Source of the DNA: Cloacibacterium sp.
GTDB lineage: Bacteria > Bacteroidota > Bacteroidia > Flavobacteriales > Weeksellaceae
Direction: 5' to 3'
DNA length: 64,000 nt
Assembly (NCBI GenBank): GCA_046296655.1
Contig: JBKBLE010000011.1
Coordinates: 290-64,289 of the forward strand
The translations under genes were made by a program, and so were the position numbers. The notes under the pieces were generated by a model. It saw only the letters and a program-made list of their open reading frames with translations. It made no database searches and was not told the DNA's origin. Of the stretch, positions 13,578 through 62,212 are shown one piece after another. Position 1 is the first letter of the stretch. Each line of letters begins with the position of its first letter.

Positions 13578-15038
13578 TTATAGTGAATAATTCGGAGCTT
13601 CTTGCGTGATAATTACATCGTGAGGATGAGATTCCTTCAATCCAGAACCTGTAATCATTACCATTTTTCCTTCTTTTTGTAAAGTTTCGATGTCTTTAGT
13701 TCCGCAATAACCCATTCCAGCTCTGATTCCACCAGTCAATTGGAAGATAACGTCTTCTAATTTTCCTTTGTATGGAACTCGTCCTTCAATTCCTTCTGGA
13801 ACAAATTTTTTAGCTTCACTTTGGAAATATCTTTCTTTTCCACCACGTTTCATAGCAGAAAGACTTCCCATTCCTTGATAAGATTTGAATTTTCTACCTT
13901 GGAAAATAATTTCTTCACCTGGCGCTTCTTCCGTTCCTGCTAAAAGTGAACCGAGCATTACTGCGCCAGCTCCAGAAGCGATAGCTTTTACAATATCACC
14001 AGAAAGTTTAATTCCACCATCTGCAATTACGGCTACATTATATTCTTTAGCTTTTTCGTAAACGTTATAAATTGCCGAAAGTTGAGGAACGCCAACTCCA
14101 GCTACAACTCTGGTAGTACAGATAGAACCAGGACCTACTCCTACTTTTAGAACATTTGCGCCAGCTTTAATTAAAGCTTCGGCAGCATCTGCTGTTACGA
14201 TGTTTCCGCCTACAATATCTAAATCTGGGAAAGCATTTCTAATTTCTGTAATTTTATCAAGAACACCTTTAGAATGACCATGCGCAGAATCTACTGCTAT
14301 AATATCTACACCAGCTTCTACTAATGCTGCAACTCTAGTCATCGTATCATCTCCTACACCAACTCCAGCTCCTACGATTAATCTTCCGTTTTGGTCTTTA
14401 TTGGCTTGAGGATATTCTAACTGATTGTCTATATCTTTTATGGTAATTAATCCTACTAAATGATTTTCTGAATCTACAATCGGAAGTTTTTCTATTCTGT
14501 TTTTAAGCAAAATCTCTTTGGCTTGCTCTAAGTTGGTAGATTTATCAGAAGTGATAAGATTTTCTTTGGTCATCAATTCTTCTACTTTTGCAGAAAGATT
14601 TTCTTGATATTTTACATCACGATTGGTGATGATTCCAATTAATTTATTGTCTGTATCTACTACTGGAAGTCCAGAGATTTTATATTTCGCCATAAGTTCC
14701 TTAGCTTCAGCTAAAGTATGATCTTTAGAAAGCGTAATAGGATCAGCGATCATTCCGTTTTCTGAACGTTTTACACGGTTTACTTGTGCTGCTTGTTCTG
14801 GAATAGGCATATTTTTATGAATAAAACCTAAACCTCCAACTCTGGCAATAGCAATCGCCAAATCTGCTTCTGTAACGGTGTCCATCGCTGCGGAAACGAT
14901 AGGAACATTAAGCGTGATTTTGTCTGAAATTCTAGATTTAAGAGAAACTTGATTGGGTAAAACTTCTGAGTAAGAAGGGATAAGAAGCACATCATCGAAA
15001 GTGATGGCGGTTTCTACGATTTTGTTGTGAATAGACAT
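13578..15038 (-). CDS. guaB: IMP dehydrogenase
   Basis: [13 protein letters not shown] pair, catalytic loop GPGSICTTR and YQGMGS. Confidence 0.99.
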
Positions 15039-36511: not shown

Positions 36512-37438
36512 TTACTTCAAAAATTCTAAAACAGCGTAAAGTGAAATGCTAGAAATGAAAATCCAAAGAATAATTCCTAAAAGAAGAGGTTTAATACCTA
36601 TATTTTTGAGATTTTGTAAAGATAATCCTGCTCCAATTAAGAAAAGAGCAACCTTGAGTGTGTCTCTGGAAATTTCAGAAATGATAGAATTGAAATTTTG
36701 TAAAAATGGAAGATAGGTTCCCGCTAAAATCGCTAAAACAAAGAAGCCAATGAAATAAGGAATCTTAATTTTTCCTTCACTTTTGGTGAAAATAGAAATA
36801 AGAAAAGCCAACGGAATAATCCATAAAGCTCGTGCTAATTTTACGGTGGTGGCAATCTGTAATGCTTCGTTGCCGTATTTACTTGCAGCGCCAACTACAG
36901 AACTTGTGTCATGAATAGAGATAGCGCTCCAAATTCCAAACTGATTTTGACTTAAATTAAAAAAATGCCCAATTTCTGGGAAAATAAAAAGTGCAACAGC
37001 ATTCAAGACAAAAATAATTCCTAATGCTACAGAAGTTTGTTTGCTATTGGCTTTTAAAATAGGTGCAACTGCTGCGATGGCGCTTCCTCCACAGATTGCG
37101 GTTCCTGCGGAAATGAGTTGAGCAATGGTTTTGTCAATTTTTAAAATTTTGGCTAATAATAAACCGAAAATCATGACCAAAGCTATCGTAGAAACGGTAA
37201 AAAGAAAACCTTGACTTCCTGCTTCTATTGCGGTGTTCAGGTTAATGCCGAAACCTAATCCAATAATAGAATATTGCAATAATTTTTTGACAAAAGTATC
37301 TGTCTCTAGAACTTTCCCGAATATATTCACAAAAAGAATTCCGAATAATAAAGCAATTGGCGGAGAAACAATTGGTGAAAAAGATAAAACAGCGAGTGCT
37401 AAAAATAGGAGTTGAAGAAGTAATTTTTTTTGGAGCAT
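36512..37438 (-). CDS. YeiH / putative sulfate exporter family membrane protein
   Basis: GTAICGGSAIAAVAP, IHDTSSVVGA and VKLARALWIIP. Confidence 0.92.
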   Translation of the reverse strand: MLQKKLLLQLLFLALAVLSFSPIVSPPIALLFGILFVNIFGKVLETDTFVKKLLQYSIIGLGFGINLNTAIEAGSQGFLFTVSTIALVMIFGLLLAKILKIDKTIAQLISAGTAICGGSAIAAVAPILKANSKQTSVALGIIFVLNAVALFIFPEIGHFFNLSQNQFGIWSAISIHDTSSVVGAASKYGNEALQIATTVKLARALWIIPLAFLISIFTKSEGKIKIPYFIGFFVLAILAGTYLPFLQNFNSIISEISRDTLKVALFLIGAGLSLQNLKNIGIKPLLLGIILWIFISSISLYAVLEFLK

Positions 37439-37549: not shown

Positions 37550-37936
37550 ATGAAAAAGTTAATATCAATATTGAGCTTAGGAGCTTTAGTTATTATAGGA
37601 ACACAGTGTTCTTTTCCTAAACCAGCAGAAAGTAATGCTCAAACTGAAGCCCAAAAAGAAGTTTCAATCAAGGAACAAGTTGCAAACGGAGCATTATTAG
37701 TAGATGTAAGAACGCCACAAGAATTTGCGGAAGGAAGTGTAAAAGGAGCCGTGAATATTCCGCTTGATGAAGTAGAAAGTAGATTGAATGAATTCAAAGG
37801 AAAACCTTCTGTAATTGTTTTTTGTAGAACAGGAAACAGAAGCGGACAAGCGAAAGCGATTCTAGAATATAATGGAATAAAAAATGTAACCAACGGAATC
37901 AATACCAAAACGGTAAACGAAGAATTGGCAAAATAA
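37550..37936 (+). CDS. Exported rhodanese-like sulfurtransferase (probable lipoprotein)
   Basis: LLVDVRTPQEF, GAVNIP and active-site loop FCRTGNRS. Signal peptide with Cys20. Confidence 0.88.
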   Translation: MKKLISILSLGALVIIGTQCSFPKPAESNAQTEAQKEVSIKEQVANGALLVDVRTPQEFAEGSVKGAVNIPLDEVESRLNEFKGKPSVIVFCRTGNRSGQAKAILEYNGIKNVTNGINTKTVNEELAK

Positions 37937-38022: not shown

Positions 38023-40071
38023 CTATTTCTGTTTTTTATAAAACTCGATTCCACATTCTAAGAATTTTTTGAAATCTTCTTTCGGCATATAACCAGAAAC
38101 AGGAGTGTTAATCACTTTTCCTTCTGGAGTTACCAAAACGTAATGCGGTTGAGAATTATTATTAAAATTCACTTGTTGGAACATACTCCATTTATCACCA
38201 ATGGTTTTAATGCGTTTCATTTGTCCGTTTCCTAAATCTACTTTGGTTTGTTCTGCTTCTGGCAATTCTTCTTTGTCGTCTACATAAAGAGAAGCAAGAA
38301 TGACTTCGTTTTGTAAAGTTGGGAGAATATCAGGTTCACTCCACACAAATTCTTCCATCTTTCTACAGTTTTCGCAACCATAACCTGTGAAATCTATTAA
38401 AACGGGCTTGTTTTCTTTCTTTGCCAATGCTATCGCTTTGAAATAATCATGTTCTGGATGCATTCCTAGAATTCCGTCTTTTTCATCATGAAGATAACTC
38501 ACATTAATTGGAGGCAAAATCCCTGAAAGCATTTGTAATTTCGGTCTTTCTGCAGGAAATAAACCTTGAACTAAATAAATCACAAAACCAATTCCTAAAA
38601 CGCCAAAGATTTTTCGGGTAACAGAAATTTTTTGGTTTTTATCATCATGTGGAAATCTGATTTTTCCAAATAAATAAAGCACTAAACCGATGGTGATGAT
38701 TATCCAAATCGCGATAAAAAGTTCACGTTTTAGTAAGAATGTTTTAGAAACTAAATCTGCTTTTGACAAGAATTTCAGTGCTAAAGCCAATTCTACGAAA
38801 CCTAGAACTACTTTTACGGTATTCATCCAACCGCCAGATTTTGGCAAACTCTGTAACGCTTGCGGAAATAATGCCAATAATCCGAAAACAATTGCCCAAC
38901 TTAAACCAAATCCTGCTAAAGCGAAGGTTAATAACATCGGAACATTTGCAGAACCCGTAACAGCGCTTCCTAATAAACTTCCTAAAATTGGTCCAGTACA
39001 AGAGAATGAAACAATTACTAAGGTTAAAGCCATAAAGAAAATTCCGATGATTCCTCCTGCTTCTTCTGCTTTTGAAGATTTATTGGCGATAGAACTTGGC
39101 AATGTAATATCATAATATCCAAAGAAACTTCCTGCGAAGAATAAGAAGATTAAGAAAAATGCAATATTTAAGCTAACTGATGTAGAAATTTGATTAAAAA
39201 TATTTCCCGCAATTCCATCAATAATGTGAAACGGAACGCTCAATAAAACGAAGATTAAAAGAATGAAAAATCCGTAAATGAATGCGTCTCTTTTTCCTTT
39301 TGCTTTGTCTTTTTGCCCTTTGGTAAAGAACGAAACCGTTAATGGAATCATTGGGAAAACGCAAGGCGTTAACAAAGCGATTAATCCGCCCAAAAACCCT
39401 AAAAATAAATAAGTGAGGTAGTTTTCAGAATTTTTTTCTTTTGCTACGCCACAGTCTGTTAAAGGATTTTCGAAATCCAATGAAGAAACCTTTAATCCTT
39501 CTTGTTGAGGAGCAATTTCTGTGTTTTCAGTTGTTATAGGAATAGTAGCCGCTACAGATTTTGTAGAGTCTAAATTCTGTACATCTTCTTTATTTTCCTC
39601 AGTTTTTACAACTGCTGAACCAGCTATTGTTTTTTCAAATTCTAAAGATTCAGGAGCCAGACAAACTCTGTCATCACAAGTTTGATAGGTAAACTCTGCA
39701 ATTACATTGGCTGGTTTTTCAGGATTTTTGAGTTTGAATTTTTGCTTAATCGTCACATTTCCAGACAAGAAAATCAAATCTGTACCGAAAGCTTCAGAAA
39801 ATTCAGTTTTTCTACTGCCTGTTTCTACAGGTTTTCCAATGAGTTGAATGTCTTTAGAATTCAGCTTCAGTTCTGTGGGAATAGCTCCAGATTCTGGGTC
39901 GATGTCTTTAGAATAAATATGCCATCCTTTGTCAATGTTAGCCGTAATTACTGCTTCGTATTCGTTATTTGGGAGTGATTTTACATCGTATTTTATCGTG
40001 ACGTGTTTCTGAATTTGCGCAGAGAACAATGAGGTAACAGCGATAAAAAGTAAAAGCAAAAACTTCTTCAT
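38023..40071 (-). CDS. dsbD: Protein-disulfide reductase DsbD (N-terminal, TM and thioredoxin domains)
   Basis: YQTCDDRVC, LTPCVFP, SFSCTGP and C-terminal GCENC. Confidence 0.93.
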   Translation of the reverse strand: MKKFLLLLFIAVTSLFSAQIQKHVTIKYDVKSLPNNEYEAVITANIDKGWHIYSKDIDPESGAIPTELKLNSKDIQLIGKPVETGSRKTEFSEAFGTDLIFLSGNVTIKQKFKLKNPEKPANVIAEFTYQTCDDRVCLAPESLEFEKTIAGSAVVKTEENKEDVQNLDSTKSVAATIPITTENTEIAPQQEGLKVSSLDFENPLTDCGVAKEKNSENYLTYLFLGFLGGLIALLTPCVFPMIPLTVSFFTKGQKDKAKGKRDAFIYGFFILLIFVLLSVPFHIIDGIAGNIFNQISTSVSLNIAFFLIFLFFAGSFFGYYDITLPSSIANKSSKAEEAGGIIGIFFMALTLVIVSFSCTGPILGSLLGSAVTGSANVPMLLTFALAGFGLSWAIVFGLLALFPQALQSLPKSGGWMNTVKVVLGFVELALALKFLSKADLVSKTFLLKRELFIAIWIIITIGLVLYLFGKIRFPHDDKNQKISVTRKIFGVLGIGFVIYLVQGLFPAERPKLQMLSGILPPINVSYLHDEKDGILGMHPEHDYFKAIALAKKENKPVLIDFTGYGCENCRKMEEFVWSEPDILPTLQNEVILASLYVDDKEELPEAEQTKVDLGNGQMKRIKTIGDKWSMFQQVNFNNNSQPHYVLVTPEGKVINTPVSGYMPKEDFKKFLECGIEFYKKQK

Positions 40072-40100: not shown

Positions 40101-40135
40101 AAAAAGGACTGGATTAATGAGTTAAAACAGTCCTT
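40101..40135 (-). terminator. Intrinsic terminator after the His/Cys peptide gene
   Basis: AAGGACTG...CAGTCCTT stem followed by a T-run on the minus strand. Confidence 0.6.
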
Positions 40136-40155: not shown

Positions 40156-40389
40156 TTACATTTTACAAGAAGCATCACAGACGTGTCTTTTCTCACCATG
40201 TTTGTAAACGTGTTTTCCTGATGTGTGACACGCTTCTGTACAAACATGTTTTTTTAGTTTATGAGCTTTTTTACAAGATTTTCTGCATTCTTTGGTGCAA
40301 ACATGTTTCTGTGGAGTTTCTTGTGCGTTCATAGTGAATGCAAATCCCGAGATTAGAAGCATTAAGCTTAATTTTTTTAGTGTTTTCAT
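40156..40389 (-). CDS. Small secreted His/Cys-rich repeat peptide
   Basis: Sec signal (…FTMNA|Q). The mature ~55 aa has 7 Cys, 7 His and three (K/R)HVCxxxC repeats. Confidence 0.8.
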   Translation of the reverse strand: MKTLKKLSLMLLISGFAFTMNAQETPQKHVCTKECRKSCKKAHKLKKHVCTEACHTSGKHVYKHGEKRHVCDASCKM

Positions 40390-40410
40390 AAATTATATAT
40401 TTTTAAGTTC

Positions 40411-40447
40411 TATTAATAAGTTCCTGTATTGAAAAAAAATCACCCAA
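40411..40447 (-). promoter_or_regulatory. Candidate alternative-sigma promoter, copy B
   Basis: Minus strand TTGGGTGA-TTTTTTTT-CAATACA-GGAACTTATTAATA, 21 nt upstream of the peptide ATG. Same spacing as copy A. Confidence 0.6.
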
Positions 40448-41492
40448 CTAAACTTAATTTTCTTAATTTTTTTTCAATTTTTAGATTTTCGGTCAAGATT
40501 TTTATTCCGTCTTTTAGAGTGAGATTCTCAGTGCCAGATTTTTTATTTATTGCTGCAATTTTGCTCATAATTTTCCAGTGTTTATAGATTTCTTTCCAGG
40601 CGAAAAAAAGAGAATGTTTAGGATCATACATATGTGTAGGTTCGCTTTTGCTACCGTTAAGTTCTATAATTTTAAAATTTTGCCCTTGTTTTAGCAGCGC
40701 CAGATTATCATACATAATATCTAATCTGCCATAGTAAAAACCATCTATTTCTTTACAAATTTCATCTATTTTTGCTTCTAGATTTTCATCTATTTCATGA
40801 GAAATATCTATAAATTCAGCTCCACGAGTGTGGCTTCCGAAAGGCATTAAATCTATTTTTTTATTTTCGGGAATAATAATATTCCATTCTTTAGAAAATC
40901 TTTTCTGCAAGGTTTTAAAATGAATTTCGCTTCTGGGATTTTGTTTTATGAGTTCTGCTAAAGTGTTTTGTCCGTTTCCTGTTACGTTTAAAAAATTTTT
41001 CTTTACCACGCCGGTAATTTTTCCCTTTTTATGATGAGGAAAACGATGATAAAAAACACCAATTTCATTTGTGAATTCAATTTTTTCCTGAATAATAAAA
41101 TCATAATCGCAGGTCAATAAATATTGCTGCAGATCATTTTTGTTGTCTAAAATTTCTACACCTAAACCTTTTAAACCAATATCTGGTTTTATAATGAGAG
41201 GAAATGTGATTTCTTTTTTCTGAATTTGATTGATGACAGTTTCCGGCGCTGATTTTTTTCTGAAAAATAAAGTTTTCGGAATGTGTTTTTCTGGGATGAT
41301 GTTGTAAATAAGTGCTTTAGAATCCATTGCCATTCCACCGAAAGGTAATGCAGGATTTGCTTGGTGAAAGAAAAATAAAGATTTTGCTCTGCAAGAAAGA
41401 TAAAGCCAAAAAGGAAGCATAGGAATATAGATTGCTGGTGTACTCCAATATTCCCAATTTTTTAGTTGATGTATTTTTAGTTTAAAACTCAT
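40440..41492 (-). CDS. ATP-grasp protein (Ddl-like fold, function unknown)
   Basis: FPLIIKPDIGLKGLGV, FIIQEKI, YYGRLDI and IIELNG. Confidence 0.8.
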   Translation of the reverse strand: MSFKLKIHQLKNWEYWSTPAIYIPMLPFWLYLSCRAKSLFFFHQANPALPFGGMAMDSKALIYNIIPEKHIPKTLFFRKKSAPETVINQIQKKEITFPLIIKPDIGLKGLGVEILDNKNDLQQYLLTCDYDFIIQEKIEFTNEIGVFYHRFPHHKKGKITGVVKKNFLNVTGNGQNTLAELIKQNPRSEIHFKTLQKRFSKEWNIIIPENKKIDLMPFGSHTRGAEFIDISHEIDENLEAKIDEICKEIDGFYYGRLDIMYDNLALLKQGQNFKIIELNGSKSEPTHMYDPKHSLFFAWKEIYKHWKIMSKIAAINKKSGTENLTLKDGIKILTENLKIEKKLRKLSLVG

Positions 41493-42189
41493 GTTGCAAT
41501 TTTGTGTTTTTTTCTAGCGTAACTTGGTTTTCATATTCCCAATGTTTAATGTAAATTTCTTCTGAAATAATAATTTGAGTGGTACTAATGGTTTTTACCA
41601 GATTGTTTCGGTTCATCATAATTCCGTTTTCGGTATCATTGGTTTTGTTTTGATGAAATGCCAAAATATTTTCAGCGTTTGTTTCTTTGTCTAAGAAAAA
41701 ATCAGTGAACCAAGTCTCTCGTTTTTCTTTTGCTGCAGTATTATACAAAGTAGAAGAAGACCAAATGTGTTTTTCTGAAAAATCTAGCTCTCTGAAAAAT
41801 TTTTCTTCGCCATTCCAGCGAAATTCTACTAAATTTTTGTTGAAGAAAATAATTAATGTGAATGGTTCTATCAAATAAAGGTCTAGTTCTTCTATTGCAG
41901 AAATGATATTGTTTTTTTCTAAAATTTCAAGTACAATTAAACCTCTGCTTTTTCTGTAGTTTTTATTTTTTTCATGTTTTGTAAAAGCACCGTTCAGTAA
42001 AATAACAGCGTTTCCTTTTTCTGAAACTGCACACCAAGTTCCGCCTGCTTTTTCGTCTTTAGGAAAGAAAAACTTCTGTTGGTTTATATTTTTTTCTTCT
42101 AAGATAATTGCAGAGCGTTTTGGTTGTTCGTCTCGGTTAGAAGTAAGAATAAAACCTTCTTTGGTGTTAAAAAAAGTTACGGTGCACAT
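41482..42189 (-). CDS. NRDE/TANGO2 family protein (Ntn-hydrolase-like)
   Basis: N-terminal MCTV, SNRDE, KAGGTW and SRG motifs. Confidence 0.92.
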   Translation of the reverse strand: MCTVTFFNTKEGFILTSNRDEQPKRSAIILEEKNINQQKFFFPKDEKAGGTWCAVSEKGNAVILLNGAFTKHEKNKNYRKSRGLIVLEILEKNNIISAIEELDLYLIEPFTLIIFFNKNLVEFRWNGEEKFFRELDFSEKHIWSSSTLYNTAAKEKRETWFTDFFLDKETNAENILAFHQNKTNDTENGIMMNRNNLVKTISTTQIIISEEIYIKHWEYENQVTLEKNTKLQHEF

Positions 42190-42689
42190 TATGAAATATT
42201 TTGTTTTCTGTATAAAACGGTAGAAGCAGCTACACCAAAATCATCTGTTACCAAATGTTCTATGTTTAATTCTTTTACTGCTACTTTTACCAGAGCTTGA
42301 TGATGTATGCAGTGTTCTATATTATAAAGCAATTCTCGGTCAAAATTGGTAATAATATCCACAGAATTATGTGTAAGAGTCATTTCTTTATTGGGCAAAT
42401 CAATTTTAGAAAGTATTTCTTTGATTTTTGTAACAGCAAATTCTGTATTGTTTTCTAAGGTTTTATTTCTCTCTCTAGCATCATATTCTACAATGCCAGA
42501 ATTATATGAGCTTAAGAGTAAATCTAGAAATTCTATCATGTGTCTTGTATGTCCGCCAATTGTAGAAGAGTTAAGTGTGAAAATAGGTTTAGTATATTCT
42601 AAATCAGAAATTTTTTCTAAAAGAAAAATGTGTTCAGACAGAACATTTATCAAAGCATTAAAAAGTGTATTATTCTGAGATTTTTGCAT
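42189..42689 (-). CDS. DinB family protein
   Basis: IGGHTRH and RELLYNIEHCIHH metal-ligand histidines, four-helix pattern. Confidence 0.85.
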   Translation of the reverse strand: MQKSQNNTLFNALINVLSEHIFLLEKISDLEYTKPIFTLNSSTIGGHTRHMIEFLDLLLSSYNSGIVEYDARERNKTLENNTEFAVTKIKEILSKIDLPNKEMTLTHNSVDIITNFDRELLYNIEHCIHHQALVKVAVKELNIEHLVTDDFGVAASTVLYRKQNIS

Positions 42690-43047
42690 GTTTTAAATTT
42701 TTATAAACCAATATTAAACAAAATATGGCGGTTGTTATAGCCAGATAAAATAATTTTCCGTTGTCATTATTTGTTTCAATTCCCAAAATAAAAATGTGTG
42801 AAACAATAGCACCTATCATTGTGAAAAAGCCTAATAATGCTCCCCAGAAAGTAGTTTTCGGGTTTAGGATTAATATAGCAGTAATTAGCTCCAAAACTCC
42901 AGAAAAAACCCTCCCGAAAGGTTCTGCGTGAAGCTTAGAAAAAATGGCAACAGAGTCTGGATGTGCTGTAAATTTAAAAAATAAAGTCTGTAGTAAAATA
43001 ATGGCAGGAACTAATCGCAATGCCCAATTAATAAAATTTTTCATCAT
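42670..43047 (-). CDS. DoxX family membrane protein
   Basis: ILLQTLFFKFT...GVLELITAILIL...GAIVSH. Start at ATG 43047/43044 rather than the track's 43173, which overlaps the DM13 gene. Confidence 0.85.
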   Translation of the reverse strand: MMKNFINWALRLVPAIILLQTLFFKFTAHPDSVAIFSKLHAEPFGRVFSGVLELITAILILNPKTTFWGALLGFFTMIGAIVSHIFILGIETNNDNGKLFYLAITTAIFCLILVYKNLKHAKISE

Positions 43048-43054
43048 TTGTGTA

Positions 43055-43483
43055 TTATAATTTTTGAAGTAATGCGTAAGAAAATAAATGATTGTATTGT
43101 TGGCAATGAACAACGGCGTATTTGTAATCGTCGAAATTGATTGCACTTGTGAACGTGTATGTTTGTCCACCATTCACAGATTTTAGTCTTCCAAGTGAAA
43201 CAAATTGAGTTGGTTGCTGTTCTTTGCTTACATAAACATACAAATCCGGACCGTTATTGATGGTAAAACTATCATTGAAAACTAATGTGAAAATGCCATT
43301 TTTTTCGTAAATCTCGGCTTTTCCGTTCACGTTATTTCCGTAAGGTCCTTGCGTAAAGTTTCCCGAATATTTCAAAATAGCATTTTCGGGAGCCATTTCC
43401 ATCAGATCTTCTGTAGAGGTGTTTTCTCTGATGCAAGAAACTAAAAGAAATGATGTTATCAGTAAAGTAAGAAATGCTTTCAT
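43055..43483 (-). CDS. DM13 domain lipoprotein
   Basis: Lipobox LLVS|C, GPDLYVYVS, LGRLK and VVHCQQYNHLFSYA. Confidence 0.85.
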   Translation of the reverse strand: MKAFLTLLITSFLLVSCIRENTSTEDLMEMAPENAILKYSGNFTQGPYGNNVNGKAEIYEKNGIFTLVFNDSFTINNGPDLYVYVSKEQQPTQFVSLGRLKSVNGGQTYTFTSAINFDDYKYAVVHCQQYNHLFSYALLQKL

Positions 43484-43487
43484 AATT

Positions 43488-43940
43488 CTACTTTGTAGTT
43501 ATCTTTTTCCAATTTTGATCGGCTTGTTTTTTTAGTGTTTCTTCATTTTTGTTCCAAGAATTGAGCGTGTTGGTGAACAATTTATTGTAGAAAAGATAAG
43601 TTTTGCCATTAATTATTTTAAAAGTAGTTGGGTTAATTTCTACTTTCTCACCATTATCTCCCATTGCAAAAGCACACCAACCTCCATAAACAGGCTCATA
43701 TTTTGAGGGATTTTTTGTAAGAAGTTCTTTGTTTTTGGCAGAAGAAGTGTAGTAAATAGCTCCATTTACATTTACTGCAAAATCTTTTTTCCCTTTTACC
43801 GCTTTTTTTTGCTCAATATATGCAACAGGATCATAACCCTGAATTGCTAATTTGTTTTCTAAATTTCTATGCTCTGTTTTTTGAGAAAAAGCAAAAAAAT
43901 GAACTAAGAAAACGAGAATAATTGCGATGTGTTTTTTCAT
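43488..43940 (-). CDS. Exported YHS-domain protein
   Basis: AIQGYDPVAY, PSKYEPVYGGWCAFAM and GKTYLFYN. Sec signal. Confidence 0.88.
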   Translation of the reverse strand: MKKHIAIILVFLVHFFAFSQKTEHRNLENKLAIQGYDPVAYIEQKKAVKGKKDFAVNVNGAIYYTSSAKNKELLTKNPSKYEPVYGGWCAFAMGDNGEKVEINPTTFKIINGKTYLFYNKLFTNTLNSWNKNEETLKKQADQNWKKITTK

Positions 43941-43949
43941 AAATTTTAA

Positions 43950-44912
43950 TTAAAGTTGTTTTAAAATATCTTCTAATGAAGCTCTCACTTTATAATCGGG
44001 GTTGAAGTGTCGCCAAATAATTTTTTGATTTTCATCTAATATATAAGTAGCAGAAACAGGGAGTCTTCCAGTTTCGTCTGAACGGCTTTTTTTGAAATCG
44101 TCTCCTAAATGTTTTTCGTATAAGTCTAAAGTTTTTCTTTCAGGAATGTAGAGTACATCAAAAAGTTCTGCGATTTTATAATTTTCATCATACAAAACAG
44201 AATATGAAGTTTTGGTTTTATCGATGGTTTTTGCAATGAACTCGGGCTTTTCGGGTGAAATAATTACCAGTTGTGTATTTTTAGATTCTAATTCAGGAGC
44301 AATATTTTGAAGACTTTCTACATACTTATTGCAGTAAGGACACCATTGTCCACGAATGAAAACCAAAACTGTTTTCTTTTTTTCCTGAGACAGAGAAAAT
44401 GTATTGCCAAACTGATCTTGTGCAGTAAAATCTGGGATAGTTTCGCCTACCAATTTACCTTTTACCTCAGCTAAAGTTGGCGTTTTGTTACCTAAATTTC
44501 TTTTTTCTAAAACCGAATATCCAACAGTAAGAAACTGTTTTGCGTTGTAATATCCATAATCGTACTGTACCAGTTCACCATTTTTATCTAAGAAAAGAAA
44601 AGAGGGATAATTTACAATTTTGAATTTTTTGGCAAGATCTACACCTTCTTTTTCGGCATCAATGTAAAGGCTGATAAAATTTTTGTTGAAAAATGCTCCC
44701 AATTCTGCATCAGGAAATGTATTCTTTTTCATTAGCTTGCAAGGTCCGCACCATGTAGTGTACAAGTCAATGAAAATGAGTTTGTTTTCTTGCTGAGCCA
44801 GTTTCTTGGCTTCTTCTAAATTTTTAGTCTGAAAATTGATTCCGTCTTTGCTTTGTGCATTAAATGAAATACCAACTAAAAATAAAACGGTATAAATGAT
44901 TTTTGTAAACAT
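43950..44912 (-). CDS. Exported fusion: thioredoxin (WCGPC) + AhpC/TSA peroxiredoxin-like domain (WCPYC)
   Basis: IDLYTTWCGPCK and FIRGQWCPYC. C-terminal LPVSATYILD...DYKVRAS. Confidence 0.85.
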   Translation of the reverse strand: MFTKIIYTVLFLVGISFNAQSKDGINFQTKNLEEAKKLAQQENKLIFIDLYTTWCGPCKLMKKNTFPDAELGAFFNKNFISLYIDAEKEGVDLAKKFKIVNYPSFLFLDKNGELVQYDYGYYNAKQFLTVGYSVLEKRNLGNKTPTLAEVKGKLVGETIPDFTAQDQFGNTFSLSQEKKKTVLVFIRGQWCPYCNKYVESLQNIAPELESKNTQLVIISPEKPEFIAKTIDKTKTSYSVLYDENYKIAELFDVLYIPERKTLDLYEKHLGDDFKKSRSDETGRLPVSATYILDENQKIIWRHFNPDYKVRASLEDILKQL

Positions 44913-44925
44913 AAAATAAATGATT

Positions 44926-44962
44926 TATTATTAAGTTCCAAAAAGCAAAAAAAATCACCCAA
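44926..44962 (-). promoter_or_regulatory. Candidate alternative-sigma promoter, copy A
   Basis: Minus strand TTGGGTGA-TTTTTTTT-GCTTTTT-GGAACTTAATAATA, 13 nt upstream of the ATG at 44912. The upstream half overlaps a terminator-like hairpin behind the sigma gene. Confidence 0.6.
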
Positions 44963-45011
44963 TGAAAAGGTGATTTTTTAAAATATATATGTAAATTATT
45001 GATAATCAGGA

Positions 45012-45575
45012 TTAAAAATTATCTTCTTTTTTTATTTTCCGAATCTGCTCTACGCATTTATGTTTTTGATTTTGAGCATTATGTTTGCTAGAATACTTAT
45101 ATTTTTCCTGAATTTCATCAATATTTTTGTTCTTCATAAAAATATCGTGAATGAGATTTTGGCAATGTGCAGAAATTTCATTGATGTAATCATTCAGTTT
45201 GTCCCAATAATTCCTTTCGTTTTCTATTGCCAGATTTATTTCTTCTTTATTTTCAAAGTAATAACTTTCATAGACTTCTACAGAAAAATTTCTATTTCGC
45301 AGTTTTTTTAACCAAAGGTTTTTAGAAATTCCGGTTACATAATTTGCGAGGCAAGTGTAGGCTTTGAAATGATCATCGTATAGTTTTTCATACAAAATAA
45401 TCAACGCATCCTGAAAAACATCTTCTGCATCTTCCAGGTTTCCTTTGTTTTCGAGAACAAATTTCCGAGTGTAGCCAAAATATTTTTTATAAAGAATTCC
45501 AAAAGCAATATTATTATCTTTCTGGAAATCTTCTATTGCCAAAGAATTCGTAGTTCTTTTATTCATCTTTTTCAT
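45012..45575 (-). CDS. ECF-type RNA polymerase sigma-70 factor
   Basis: Region 2 (DAEDVFQDALIILYEK...KNLWLKKLR) and region 4 (HCQNLI...IDEIQEK...AQNQKHKC). 187 aa. Confidence 0.88.
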   Translation of the reverse strand: MKKMNKRTTNSLAIEDFQKDNNIAFGILYKKYFGYTRKFVLENKGNLEDAEDVFQDALIILYEKLYDDHFKAYTCLANYVTGISKNLWLKKLRNRNFSVEVYESYYFENKEEINLAIENERNYWDKLNDYINEISAHCQNLIHDIFMKNKNIDEIQEKYKYSSKHNAQNQKHKCVEQIRKIKKEDNF

Positions 45576-46518
45576 GCTTTTTTTTACAATAGATTTCTTT
45601 TCTCTTAATGCTGATTTCGTGGGAGTTGCTTCTAAAGAATTTCCCGTTTTCAGAAAAGATTACTTTTTCTATTTCAATGCCCGTGAAGCCAAGTTTTCTA
45701 ATAATTTCTACAATTATTGTTTTGTGTTTTTTTAGTAATTTTTCTTTGTCTAAAACAAATTCTTTTTCGTCTCCACTTATTAAGATTTCTTCAAATGTTT
45801 TTTGAATTTCTTCTTGAAAAAACTGGTTTGCACTATTAAGATATGAAAGACTTTCTTGAAATTGATTCAAAAAATTAGGAAAAATTTCTAATAATTTGGG
45901 CGTTAGATGATGTCTGATTTTATTTCTCAGATAATCATCTTTTTGGTTGCTTTTATCTTCTCTAAAATCGATGTTGTTTTCTTCTGCAAAAGCATAAATT
46001 TCGGATTTTGAGAAGGTCAAAAACGGGCGCAAAATTCGGTTTTCATTTTTAGGAATTCCGCTCAATCCTTTAATTCCCGAACCTCTGGAAAGATTGATGA
46101 TAAAGGTTTCTAATTCATCATTGAGATGGTGTGCCGTAACAATATAGTCCAAGTTTTCTTCTTCTAAAATTTTAAAAAAGAAATCATACCTCAATTCTCT
46201 CGCCCAATTTTGAAGCGATTTCATTTGAGCTTTTTCTTCTTCTGAAACATCTTTTAGATGAAATTTGATGTCATTTTTTTTGCAAAAATCTTCTACCAAT
46301 TTTTGGTCAAGATTAGAATCTTCTCCTCGGAAATGATAGTTTACATGAGCTACTTGGAACTCTAGACCTTTGTCATTTTGAGCGGAGTCGAAAAATCTAA
46401 ACAAGTGCGAAAGCACCATAGAATCTGCACCACCCGAAACAGCCAAAAGAAATTTTTTAGAAAAAATGTCTTCTCCTAAAACTTCTAAATTTTCCTTAAA
46501 ATTGTTAAAATCTAACAA
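45559..46518 (-). CDS. tilS: tRNA(Ile)-lysidine synthetase
   Basis: AVSGGADSMVL PP-loop, TAHHLNDELET and RNKIRH. TTG start; overlaps the sigma start by 17 bp. Confidence 0.95.
   Translation of the reverse strand: MLDFNNFKENLEVLGEDIFSKKFLLAVSGGADSMVLSHLFRFFDSAQNDKGLEFQVAHVNYHFRGEDSNLDQKLVEDFCKKNDIKFHLKDVSEEEKAQMKSLQNWARELRYDFFFKILEEENLDYIVTAHHLNDELETFIINLSRGSGIKGLSGIPKNENRILRPFLTFSKSEIYAFAEENNIDFREDKSNQKDDYLRNKIRHHLTPKLLEIFPNFLNQFQESLSYLNSANQFFQEEIQKTFEEILISGDEKEFVLDKEKLLKKHKTIIVEIIRKLGFTGIEIEKVIFSENGKFFRSNSHEISIKRKEIYCKKKHEKDE
46371..46398. repeat. GTCAT-headed REP-like remnant inside tilS
   Basis: TGTCATTTTGAGCGGAGTCGAAAAATCT, translated on the minus strand as RFFDSAQND in a loop after the PP-loop helix. 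Confidence 0.6.
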
Positions 46519-62137: not shown

Positions 62138-62212
62138 GGTGATTGTAGCTCAGTTGGTTAGAGCGTCGGATTGTGGTCCCGAAGGTCGTGGGTTCGAGAC
62201 CCATCATTCACC
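62138..62212 (+). tRNA. tRNA-His (GTG)
   Basis: Cloverleaf with G-1/C73, anticodon GTG at 62173-62175 and TTCGAGA T-loop. CCA is not fully encoded. Promoter TATATTTG at 62117-62124. Confidence 0.95.

Follow-up and report, generated by a model that had tools for sequence, protein, structure and literature searches.

Organization of the gene array

We analyzed a gene array located on the minus strand at positions 40156 to 45575 of a 64,000-nucleotide stretch of DNA from Cloacibacterium sp. (contig JBKBLE010000011.1, positions 290 to 64,289); this entire stretch is called the window. The host, an uncultured bacterium related to Chryseobacterium, has a G+C content of about 33% and was seen in wastewater, activated-sludge and hot-spring metagenomes. 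An earlier note, made from the sequence alone, had described the array as a single candidate redox and thiol system of nine co-oriented genes, and a check of the open reading frames (ORFs) found all nine where the note had placed them (Table 1). From the gene encoding a thioredoxin/peroxiredoxin fusion (Trx/Prx) through those for YHS, DM13, DoxX, DinB and NRDE proteins to an ATP-grasp gene, the junctions measured +9, +4, +7, -20, -1 and -11 nt in this order. The gaps from the sigma factor gene to the Trx/Prx gene, from the ATP-grasp to the peptide gene and from the peptide gene to dsbD amounted to 99, 50 and 84 nt, respectively. Pfam and NCBIfam agreed with the domain identities assigned before; DinB and Sigma70_r2 stayed below their thresholds, and the DinB fold was backed by AlphaFold2 (AF2) and Foldseek.

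The array is built of three layers: a core of three enzymes (DinB, NRDE and ATP-grasp, hereafter the triad) distributed throughout Bacteroidota, a set of thiol-redox proteins that are exported, and a sigma factor, so far undescribed, with a conserved promoter-like motif of its own. These parts differ in age, comprising an old core, its usual partners, patchy accessories and a regulator limited to one lineage.

Table 1. Features of the array and its surroundings in window coordinates; protein functions are predictions
Feature	Position	Strand	Remarks
Sigma-70/extracytoplasmic function (ECF)-like factor, divergent	45012-45575	-	184-187 aa; gene callers start at 45566 (184 aa)
Near-palindrome CTGATTATCA(A/G)	44985-45010	-	just past sigma stop, upstream of hairpin
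Terminator-like hairpin behind sigma gene	44949-44979	-	-12.6 kcal/mol, z -4.9; 3' arm is GGGTGA of motif copy 1
Motif copy 1, GGGTGA-N15-GGAACT	44934-44960	-	Trx/Prx ATG 22 nt downstream
Trx + AhpC/TSA fusion, exported	43950-44912	-	AhpC-TSA and Thioredoxin_2; two CxxC motifs
YHS-type protein, exported	43488-43940	-	NF041384
DM13-domain lipoprotein	43055-43483	-	PF10517; accessory gene
DoxX-family membrane protein	42670-43047	-	DoxX_2; 125 aa; listed ORF extends to 43173
DinB-fold metalloprotein	42189-42689	-	distinct subfamily
NRDE/TANGO2-family Cys N-terminal-nucleophile hydrolase	41482-42189	-	PF05742
ATP-grasp amide ligase	40440-41492	-	GshF/cyanophycin-synthetase-like
Motif copy 2, GGGTGA-N15-GGAACT	40411-40447	-	overlaps ATP-grasp stop; peptide ATG 37 nt on
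His/Cys repeat peptide, exported	40156-40389	-	77 aa; 3x HVCxxxC and GKHVYKHGEK
Terminator-like hairpin with U-run after peptide gene	40104-40135	-	-13 kcal/mol, z -2.9
dsbD	38023-40071	-	Pfam DsbD_N, DsbD_TM and Trx; thiol:disulfide electron importer
Rhodanese gene	37550-37936	+	
YeiH gene	36512-37438		
tilS	45559-46518		end overlaps sigma gene start
tRNA gene	62139-62212		sole Rfam match at gathering threshold in the window

Enzymes of the core

The DinB-like protein reached 18.1 bits with Pfam DinB (cut-off 23). Its AF2 model (predicted local distance difference test, pLDDT, 94.2) retrieved DinB/YfiT-like structures as all of the top 14 Foldseek matches in the PDB, with a probability of 1.0 and TM scores of 0.55-0.66, which confirmed the four-helix-bundle DinB fold at the level of the model. 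The leading matches were YjoA, BH3987, YizA, DR0053, YfiT, MST and MDMPI; YfiT is a bacillithiol transferase and MST a mycothiol S-transferase. Invariant positions comprise H47, H50, H126, H129 and H130, including a conserved His triad for a metal, and R49, R72, R74 and R118. A PDB sequence search with the DinB profile returned His-tag artefacts only.

The NRDE protein matched PF05742 (TANGO2) with 57.9 bits (gathering cut-off 22.6), and its profile matched human TANGO2 (8sv7) at E 1.5e-4 over the N-terminal 60 residues only. Residues C2, R19, D20, E21 and N66 were invariant in 20 sequences and N18 was present in most; Cys2, the N-R-D-E residues and a downstream Asn were proposed to be catalytic in the crystal structure of human TANGO2 (PMC13044924). 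This residue set points to a Cys N-terminal-nucleophile (Cys-Ntn) amidohydrolase with intact catalytic residues.

The NRDE protein might instead be a heme chaperone of the TANGO2/HtpA type, acting in heme handling or cytochrome c maturation, with Trx/Prx and DsbD keeping apocytochrome cysteines reduced. For HtpA, an NRDE protein of Shewanella, heme trafficking was reported, with partial complementation by a homologue from Tenacibaculum (PMC10470608); furthermore, ResA is the best NCBIfam match of the peroxiredoxin half, and dsbD adjoins the array. However, the invariant Cys-Ntn set agrees with an interpretation of the TANGO2 structure as that of a hydrolase (PMC13044924), the heme role of TANGO2 is contested (PMC12782551) and the NRDE protein is fused to the ATP-grasp ligase in three genera. 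The ResA score was 61 with a cut-off of 170, and ccm or ccs genes were not found in the neighbourhoods. Hence, we regard a function in heme handling as very improbable.

The ATP-grasp protein scored 23.1 bits with RimK ATP-grasp (cut-off 21), and K102, D258, E277 and N279 were invariant. Its AF2 model (pLDDT 88.6) gave 446 PDB fold matches at E<=1e-3, headed by GshF 3ln6 (glutathione-synthetase domain, E 9e-12; 23% identity over 254 columns), followed by the G domains of CphA1/2 and then by Ddl; a profile search of the PDB matched 8fxh, 7ta5 and 3ln6. In the model, two helices with many aromatic residues largely take the place of the usual N-domain. The NCBI record names the protein D-alanine--D-alanine ligase; this identity was rejected, since NF002378 scored 15.3 bits with a cut-off of 243, Ddl structures rank behind GshF and CphA, and the usual N-domain is missing. 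A classical transmembrane segment was likewise rejected for the N-terminal helix, the mean hydropathy of about 1.0 being too low. Judged from sequences and models, the three cytoplasmic enzymes of the earlier note are thus best described as a putative metalloprotein of the DinB fold, an amidohydrolase of the Cys-Ntn type whose catalytic residues are intact, and an amide ligase resembling GshF and CphA.

A profile search with the ATP-grasp family in 1.84 billion representatives yielded 1411 family clusters at E<=1e-30. Fusions of NRDE with ATP-grasp were found in Pedobacter sp. Hv1, Dyadobacter sp. OTU695 and Siphonobacter aquaeclarae, fusions of LysE with ATP-grasp in Psychroserpens and others, and a DedA/VTT-ATP-grasp fusion in a metagenome-assembled genome (MAG) of Leptospiraceae. 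One DedA/VTT-fused protein carries an extra alpha/beta-hydrolase domain, and an ATP-grasp-YqcI/YcgG fusion is also present (the DedA/VTT and YqcI/YcgG fusions are family representatives P0444, P0465 and P0389). Because of the Leptospiraceae fusion, a single case and the sole basis, the family reaches beyond Bacteroidota. These natural fusions independently tie hydrolase, ligase and membrane exporter to one process.

Part of these data would also suit a membrane-lipid amide pathway, in which ATP-grasp would form, and NRDE cleave, an N-acyl amino-acid-type lipid or a lipid-linked head group at the membrane instead of a soluble thiol. Fatty-acyl amides or acyl-CoA were proposed as substrates of TANGO2 (PMC13044924), the N-terminal helix of the ATP-grasp protein is rich in aromatic residues, and DedA/VTT or LysE fusions exist in some organisms. 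We consider such a pathway improbable: the hydropathy of the N-terminal segment is low, the nearest ligase structures use peptide or amino-acid carboxylates, and no acyltransferase or lipid genes were recurrent in the neighbourhoods.

Conservation of the gene neighbourhood

Gene neighbourhoods were compared at 80 loci, each from a different species, with the ATP-grasp protein as anchor and flanks of 10 kb, into which the proteins of the window were searched by tblastn (loci are numbered with the prefix L). DinB was present at all 80 loci and NRDE at 79; of the 79 loci at which each was clustered, 78 had it immediately upstream and in the same orientation. YHS accompanied the triad at 59-60 loci, DoxX at 32, and DM13 (including Chitinophagaceae) and Trx/Prx at 14 each. 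The loci span Chryseobacterium, Epilithonimonas, many marine Flavobacteriaceae, Flavobacterium, Chitinophagaceae, Saprospiraceae, Algoriphagus and Sphingobacteriales, and thus Flavobacteriia, Chitinophagia, Cytophagia, Saprospiria and Sphingobacteriia. Culturable carriers are Chryseobacterium taihuense and C. gambrini for the full array and Flavobacterium succinicans and F. psychrophilum for the triad. Clustering of neighbouring ORFs additionally revealed a LysE-type exporter at 53 loci, either just before DinB or just after ATP-grasp. Co-occurrence in other genomes, a check proposed in the earlier note, was therefore far above chance. The claim of a single nine-gene system survives in part: the triad is conserved, but the unit found throughout the phylum is, judged from gene content, the triad with or without YHS, DoxX and LysE and is smaller than nine genes.

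The accessory genes rejoin the triad in unrelated lineages, in varying arrangements. Genomes of the Sediminibacterium type have the order YHS-DoxX-outer membrane protein-DM13-YceI-triad, a Chitinophagaceae MAG has DM13-Trx/Prx-YHS-DoxX-triad, and Flavobacterium succinicans has DM13-Trx/Prx-YHS-YHS-DoxX-triad-LysE. A YpdA/bacillithiol-disulfide reductase (TIGR04018, 491 bits) neighbours the triad at 27 loci; further neighbours are glutathione peroxidase, an AhpD-like peroxidase-related protein and YceI, and in Flavobacterium a peroxiredoxin-only gene lies near the triad behind a Crp/Fnr regulator. Judged by predicted family, the great majority of the genes that joined the triad in other lineages have thiol or oxidative-stress functions. 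Neither YpdA nor any other of these recurrent neighbours was found in the 64-kb window.

Triad loci of the Maribacter/Arenibacter type encode a bona fide ECF sigma factor (r2 70.8 bits, r4_2 28.9 bits) and a small HxxxCxxC protein. At five loci (L018, L020, L021, L045 and L063) a triad cluster consisting of tRNA_anti-like, YceI, LysE, DinB, NRDE and ATP-grasp genes was observed divergent to a canonical ECF sigma gene, which is located at about -4700 to -3500 relative to ATP-grasp. The protein of about 92 aa beside this sigma factor has an HxxxCxxC sequence, a zinc-binding anti-sigma motif recognized by eye and without a Pfam match.

In comparison with Chryseobacterium and Epilithonimonas loci carrying the full array (L011-L019), sigma, Trx/Prx, YHS, DM13 and DoxX were 80-92% identical, whereas DinB, NRDE and ATP-grasp were 48-58% and the flanking genes 46-84% identical. 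Chryseobacterium sp. 52, which has no full array, showed 71% identity for sigma and 68% for Trx/Prx. This split may reflect horizontal exchange of the module from sigma to DoxX or very unequal constraint.

The sigma factor and its promoter-like motif

The sigma factor is divergent. It scored 20 bits with Sigma70_r2 (cut-off 24), 43.6 bits with TIGR02985 and 30.8 bits with TIGR02937 (cut-off 42.9); Pfam gave no match for region 4, and phmmer detected a weak similarity to region 2 of E. coli sigma-E (E 0.26). Across Bacteroidota, 275 homologues with 49-56% identity were detectable, many of them with recorded PF04542 matches. An alignment showed that the C-terminal segment HNAQNQKHKC.EQI and His134-Cys135 are invariant. 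Over 22 homologues, down to 47% identity, His134-Cys135 and His162...His169-Lys-Cys171 did not vary. The invariant Cys and His residues may form an intrinsic redox or metal sensing site, or may simply belong to the promoter-recognition helix.

Among the 80 triad loci the sigma gene was found at eight, all of them in Chryseobacterium and Epilithonimonas. Seven further contexts of sigma homologues were looked up (Elizabethkingia, L093, L095-L098 and Chryseobacterium sp. 52). The 51% identical homologue of Elizabethkingia anophelis (L091/L092, 1-8500) lies in a region resembling a conjugative element (RteC, DUF1896 and a large methylase-helicase), adjoined by a mer operon (ArsR-MerT/HMA-MerA-like) and a pair of Trx and Redoxin genes. 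L093 has the order sigma, exported CxxC protein, TilS, DsbD, and at L095 a motif copy and an unannotated ORF come after sigma. L096 reads sigma-YceI-Trx-Trx9-Prx-CMD-DinB-NRDE; its DinB and NRDE belong to the same subfamilies as those of the window (41-42% identical), and this locus thus independently links the sigma family to DinB-NRDE and to Trx/Prx genes. At L097 sigma is followed by a relative of the His/Cys peptide and DUF6789, and at L098 by a P460-like protein and DUF6789; DUF6789 or small proteins adjoin some of the homologues. Judged from these gene orders, sigma is a putative lineage-specific controller which is coupled more tightly to Trx/Prx genes than to the triad.

The earlier note had reported a shared non-housekeeping promoter motif occurring twice, and indeed TTGGGTGATTTTTTTT-N7-GGAACTTAWTAATA has exactly two copies in the window, at 44926-44962 before the operon and at 40411-40447 before the peptide gene. 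The pattern GGTGA-N13-18-GGAAC gave three matches in the window with 0.25 expected, a number reached by 0 of 100 shuffles. Copy 1 is conserved at nine Chryseobacterium/Epilithonimonas loci and occurs also beside distant sigma homologues; copy 2 is limited to its own lineage, namely the window and L001-L010. The form GGGTGA-N15-GG[AT]A[CT]T adjoins every sigma homologue examined, in six non-orthologous contexts, L096 having a GGTATA variant that the strict pattern did not match. The motif stands before the gene next to sigma, and the genes led by it encode Trx, Prx, His/Cys-peptide or DinB-NRDE proteins; in Elizabethkingia, GGGTGA-N15-GGAATT precedes the Trx and Redoxin pair. A search of both strands of 1.77 Mb gave two off-target matches only. 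The motif beside its homologues supports sigma as a candidate controller of the system, but the factor itself is missing from most triad loci.

Since 22 to more than 50 nt separate the motif from the start codon, depending on the locus, the motif was read as a -35/-10 pair. GGAACTT was rejected as a classical ECF -35 box of Trx/Prx because it lies only 22 nt before the ATG; a -10-like role suits all loci better. GGGTGA-N15-GG[AT]A[CT]T therefore looks like the cognate promoter of this sigma family, as far as comparative data can tell. The near-palindrome between sigma stop and hairpin, which the window shares in conserved form with all Chryseobacterium/Epilithonimonas loci, could be an operator for another regulator. 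Known RNA elements were not found within the cluster by Rfam at the gathering threshold.

Exported proteins and DsbD

Signal peptides and the lipobox of DM13 (LLVSC) were assigned by eye. The Trx/Prx fusion matched Pfam AhpC-TSA (95 bits) and Thioredoxin_2 (66 bits) and contains WCGPC and WCPYC motifs; NCBIfam matches to ResA-like and SelL-related families were under their cut-offs. The YHS protein matched NF041384 YHS_seleno_dom with 123.2 bits (cut-off 70), Pfam YHS remaining below threshold. Its alignment revealed one invariant Cys (GGxCA), which is aligned with the selenocysteine position of the family; some members of this family have a selenocysteine form with a GxU motif (PMC13188914). 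DM13 scored 51.6 bits with PF10517, and DoxX scored 26.8 bits with DoxX_2 (cut-off 26.3).

DM13 and the 77-aa His/Cys peptide had been listed among the members of the system, but neither is a fixed one. The DM13 gene is precisely absent from L001-L004, strains about 97% identical over the locus, where the DoxX ATG (L001 8444-8449) occupies the exact position of the DM13 ATG of the window (ATGAAA..ATGAAA), and is present in the window and in L006 (1141-1569). The YHS region next to this indel is 89.5% identical, compared with 95-98% elsewhere in the locus. The peptide is lineage-specific, as no homologue of it was found by tblastn at any of the 80 triad loci. A 105-aa exported relative with four HxCTxxC and two GKH[VI]YAHGEK repeats is encoded at L097 (7635-7952), directly behind the sigma homologue and the motif; together, both peptides define a small unannotated family of His/Cys repeat peptides.

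Three assignments to known peptide systems were rejected. A ribosomally synthesized and post-translationally modified peptide, with the ATP-grasp protein modifying the His/Cys peptide, does not fit, as the peptide occurs at 0 of 80 related loci and the ligase is GshF/CphA-like. A graspetide/microviridin-type cluster was discarded since the precursor is not co-conserved with ATP-grasp (0 of 80) and the L097 relative occurs without it. A bufferin (MNIO) cluster was discarded, too, since MNIO/DUF692 and DUF2063 were not found among cluster proteins or recurrent neighbours.

Detoxification of a metal (Cu, Hg or Cd) could nevertheless be the purpose of the array, the peptide and YHS sequestering soft metals in the periplasm as in bufferin/gig-like systems while the cytoplasmic enzymes modify the peptide or make a chelator. 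The fold family of YHS binds metals, HxCxxxC and GKHxYxHGEK repeats occur in the peptide, and at L097 the gene of its relative comes first after a sigma homologue. In Elizabethkingia, sigma homologue and motif-led Trx and Redoxin pair lie on an integrative and conjugative element next to a mer operon. SigF-controlled bufferin operons, moreover, pair an exported Cys peptide with DoxX (PMC11626156). Against this explanation, which we consider rather unlikely, speak the absence of MNIO/DUF692 and DUF2063 genes, the GshF/CphA-like nature of the ATP-grasp protein and the recruited neighbours, which are mostly peroxide or thiol enzymes. Furthermore, the triad is not a dedicated modifier of the peptide, since the latter is missing from every triad locus.

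The earlier note had seen dsbD, rhodanese and YeiH genes downstream of the array, and all three are present. Within 10 kb of the triad, DsbD was found at 5, rhodanese at 3 and YeiH at 0 of the 80 loci. Rhodanese and YeiH were therefore dismissed as linked genes or members of the system. In L001, a near-identical strain, an ExbD gene (13663-14175) lies between dsbD and the rhodanese gene, which is not the case in the window; dsbD and rhodanese are hence not a fixed pair. dsbD, syntenic in Chryseobacterium, is the only one of the three that is syntenic in relatives, and DsbD is a plausible source of reductant for the exported CxxC proteins.

Transcription of the array

Two wastewater metatranscriptomes (X12 and X17) hold 84-89% of the words of the locus, and their contigs span the entire cluster. 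Three stretches are bridged by RNA contigs, namely the sigma/Trx junction, DoxX-DinB-NRDE, and the ATP-grasp and peptide genes with the start of dsbD. Depths are contig depths given by the assembler and may include DNA. They amounted to 100-120 (X12) and 230-355 (X17) for tilS, sigma and Trx/Prx, to 26 and 89 for YHS, to 24 and 46 for DM13, and to 5-13 and 5-20 from DoxX to the peptide gene; for dsbD they rose to 146-358 and 890-1540, which is 10-100 times the depth of the upstream genes. The stepwise drop indicates that the array is expressed with strong polarity. dsbD has no motif copy, is located beyond the terminator-like hairpin and has a much higher contig depth; thus, it is probably transcribed separately. 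In both metatranscriptomes a contig joins 40765 to 44901, so that the 4135 nt between a point within ATP-grasp and the Trx/Prx start are missing. This contig shows no microhomology and has only 21 nt on its shorter side; it is either an assembly chimera or a deletion variant.

The steep drop of contig depth inside the array would also be expected if two or three independent units merely abutted: an envelope disulfide island of sigma, Trx/Prx and possibly DsbD, into which an operon from YHS and DoxX to ATP-grasp had been inserted in some Weeksellaceae, with no shared pathway. The gene orders of L099 (Chryseobacterium sp. 52; sigma and Trx/Prx without the rest) and L093 favour this view, as do the sigma gene's occurrence at just 8 of 80 triad loci and the identity split between sigma-DoxX and the triad. 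However, from Trx/Prx to ATP-grasp there is neither a terminator-like site nor intergenic space, and DoxX and DinB overlap by 20 nt. Trx/Prx or Prx rejoins the triad at unrelated loci (L041, L065, L070, L075, L079, L080 and L088), and L096 joins the sigma family with DinB-NRDE. We therefore judge independent units to be unlikely, though deserving serious consideration.

Discussion

We favour the view that the locus is a composite stress operon which combines regulation by sigma, thiol repair in the envelope and a triad acting on an amide-linked metabolite, and assign it a probability of roughly 0.55. Comparative evidence suggests that sigma recognizes GGGTGA-N15-GG[A/T]A[C/T]T. The copy behind the sigma gene would drive Trx/Prx-YHS-DM13-DoxX-DinB-NRDE-ATP-grasp as one translationally coupled transcript, and the second copy would drive the gene of the His/Cys peptide. 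According to their families, Trx/Prx, the single-Cys YHS protein, DM13 and the His/Cys peptide, together with DoxX in the membrane, could repair or buffer thiol-reactive damage of the envelope caused by oxidants or soft metals, and DsbD next door could provide the reducing power.

The substrate of the triad would be a single small metabolite with an amide linkage, handled at the inner face of the membrane. The ATP-grasp protein is predicted to form an amide bond and the TANGO2-like Cys-Ntn hydrolase to cleave one, while the His-triad DinB protein may catalyze a metal-dependent step, probably thiol transfer; in most other lineages the LysE-type exporter, sometimes fused to the ligase, would carry the product out. 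In the reading that we prefer, the triad would run a cycle that makes, conjugates and recycles a low-molecular-weight thiol or peptide and feeds the envelope redox proteins, similar to the glutathione, bacillithiol and mycothiol pathways.

Several observations weigh against the composite operon. Sigma is missing from 72 of the 80 triad loci, and Chryseobacterium sp. 52 has the order tilS-sigma-Trx/Prx-305aa-DsbD and no triad. Contig depth falls about 10-20-fold from Trx/Prx to the genes from DoxX to ATP-grasp. The window contains no LysE gene and no candidate for an anti-sigma factor, the sigma gene being flanked by tilS and Trx/Prx. The GGAACT half of the motif resembles a classical ECF -35 element yet occupies the -10 position. 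Copy 1 also falls on a terminator-like hairpin, whose structure may explain some of the conservation of this copy. The matches of the ATP-grasp protein to GshF and CphA are just 15-23% identical, and DoxX was dispensable in one comparable system that was tested (PMC11626156).

A bolder proposal, which we put forward as speculative, is that DinB-NRDE-ATP-grasp, with or without LysE, makes, processes and exports a new low-molecular-weight thiol or peptide of Bacteroidota, that the TANGO2 member is the amidohydrolase dedicated to it, and that sigma senses by itself through its Cys and His residues without an anti-sigma factor. If true, a natural substrate class would be at hand for the TANGO2 family for the first time, and the sigma factors would form a new family that senses thiol or metal stress. 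TANGO2 is a human disease gene of disputed function, viewed as a heme carrier, an acyl-CoA binder or a Cys-Ntn hydrolase. Here, a bacterial relative shares a very strongly conserved operon with a ligase, to which it is joined in some fusion proteins, and has a DinB metalloprotein and an exporter among its linked partners; this context makes the hydrolase hypothesis and the substrate testable in culturable Flavobacterium, Chryseobacterium and Pedobacter. The sigma family and GGGTGA-N15-GGWAYT constitute a candidate regulon for Bacteroidota, in which alternative promoters are poorly known, and the sigma-motif pair is also carried by an Elizabethkingia conjugative element beside mercury-resistance genes. 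Full-text literature searches for the gene combinations retrieved nothing relevant on the triad or the sigma motif; both are probably undescribed, which agrees with the earlier note's statement that no characterization was known.

Among known systems, the composite operon resembles the SigF-NrsF bufferin (gig/buf) operons of Caulobacter and relatives (PMC11626156), which likewise combine an alternative sigma factor, a Sec-exported Cys-rich peptide and DoxX with metal stress of the envelope. In contrast to these, MNIO (DUF692) and DUF2063 enzymes and an anti-sigma factor are absent here, the cytoplasmic enzymes are DinB, NRDE and ATP-grasp, and the peptide is dispensable for the conserved core. 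With human TANGO2 and Shewanella HtpA the NRDE protein shares the PF05742 family above the Pfam threshold and the constellation of Cys2 and N-R-D-E; it differs in its distance to 8sv7, in its location in a ligase operon and in its fusion in some genera.

Glutathione is made by GshF or GshB and turned over by the Ntn-hydrolases GGT, Dug3 and EgtC, with cleavage of gamma-glutamyl amides. The GshF ATP-grasp domain is the structure solved nearest to our ligase, and these Ntn-hydrolases offer a precedent for the putative role of NRDE. Unlike in the glutathione system, identity to the GshF domain is low, no gamma-glutamylcysteine ligase is encoded nearby and two helices take the place of the ligase N-domain. 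Bacillithiol and mycothiol detoxification uses DinB-fold S-transferases (BstA/YfiT, MST), amidases (Bca/Mca) and ligases (BshC/MshC). The triad is similar in its predicted combination of a DinB-fold His-triad protein, an amide hydrolase and an ATP-dependent ligase, in the exporter of most lineages and in the neighbouring YpdA. It differs in that the amidase is of the Cys-Ntn TANGO2 type and not of the LmbE type, the ligase is an ATP-grasp enzyme and not of the BshC/MshC type, and DinB belongs to a distinct subfamily with no PDB sequence match.

SigR-RsrA of Actinobacteria controls a thiol-oxidative-stress regulon. The array is comparable in that a group-4-like sigma factor is associated with genes of thioredoxin type and putative genes for low-molecular-weight thiols, and the Maribacter/Arenibacter loci pair an ECF sigma factor with an HxxxCxxC protein. 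Unlike SigR, the sigma factor of the window has no anti-sigma partner, and its own C-terminal region contains two invariant Cys and several invariant His residues.

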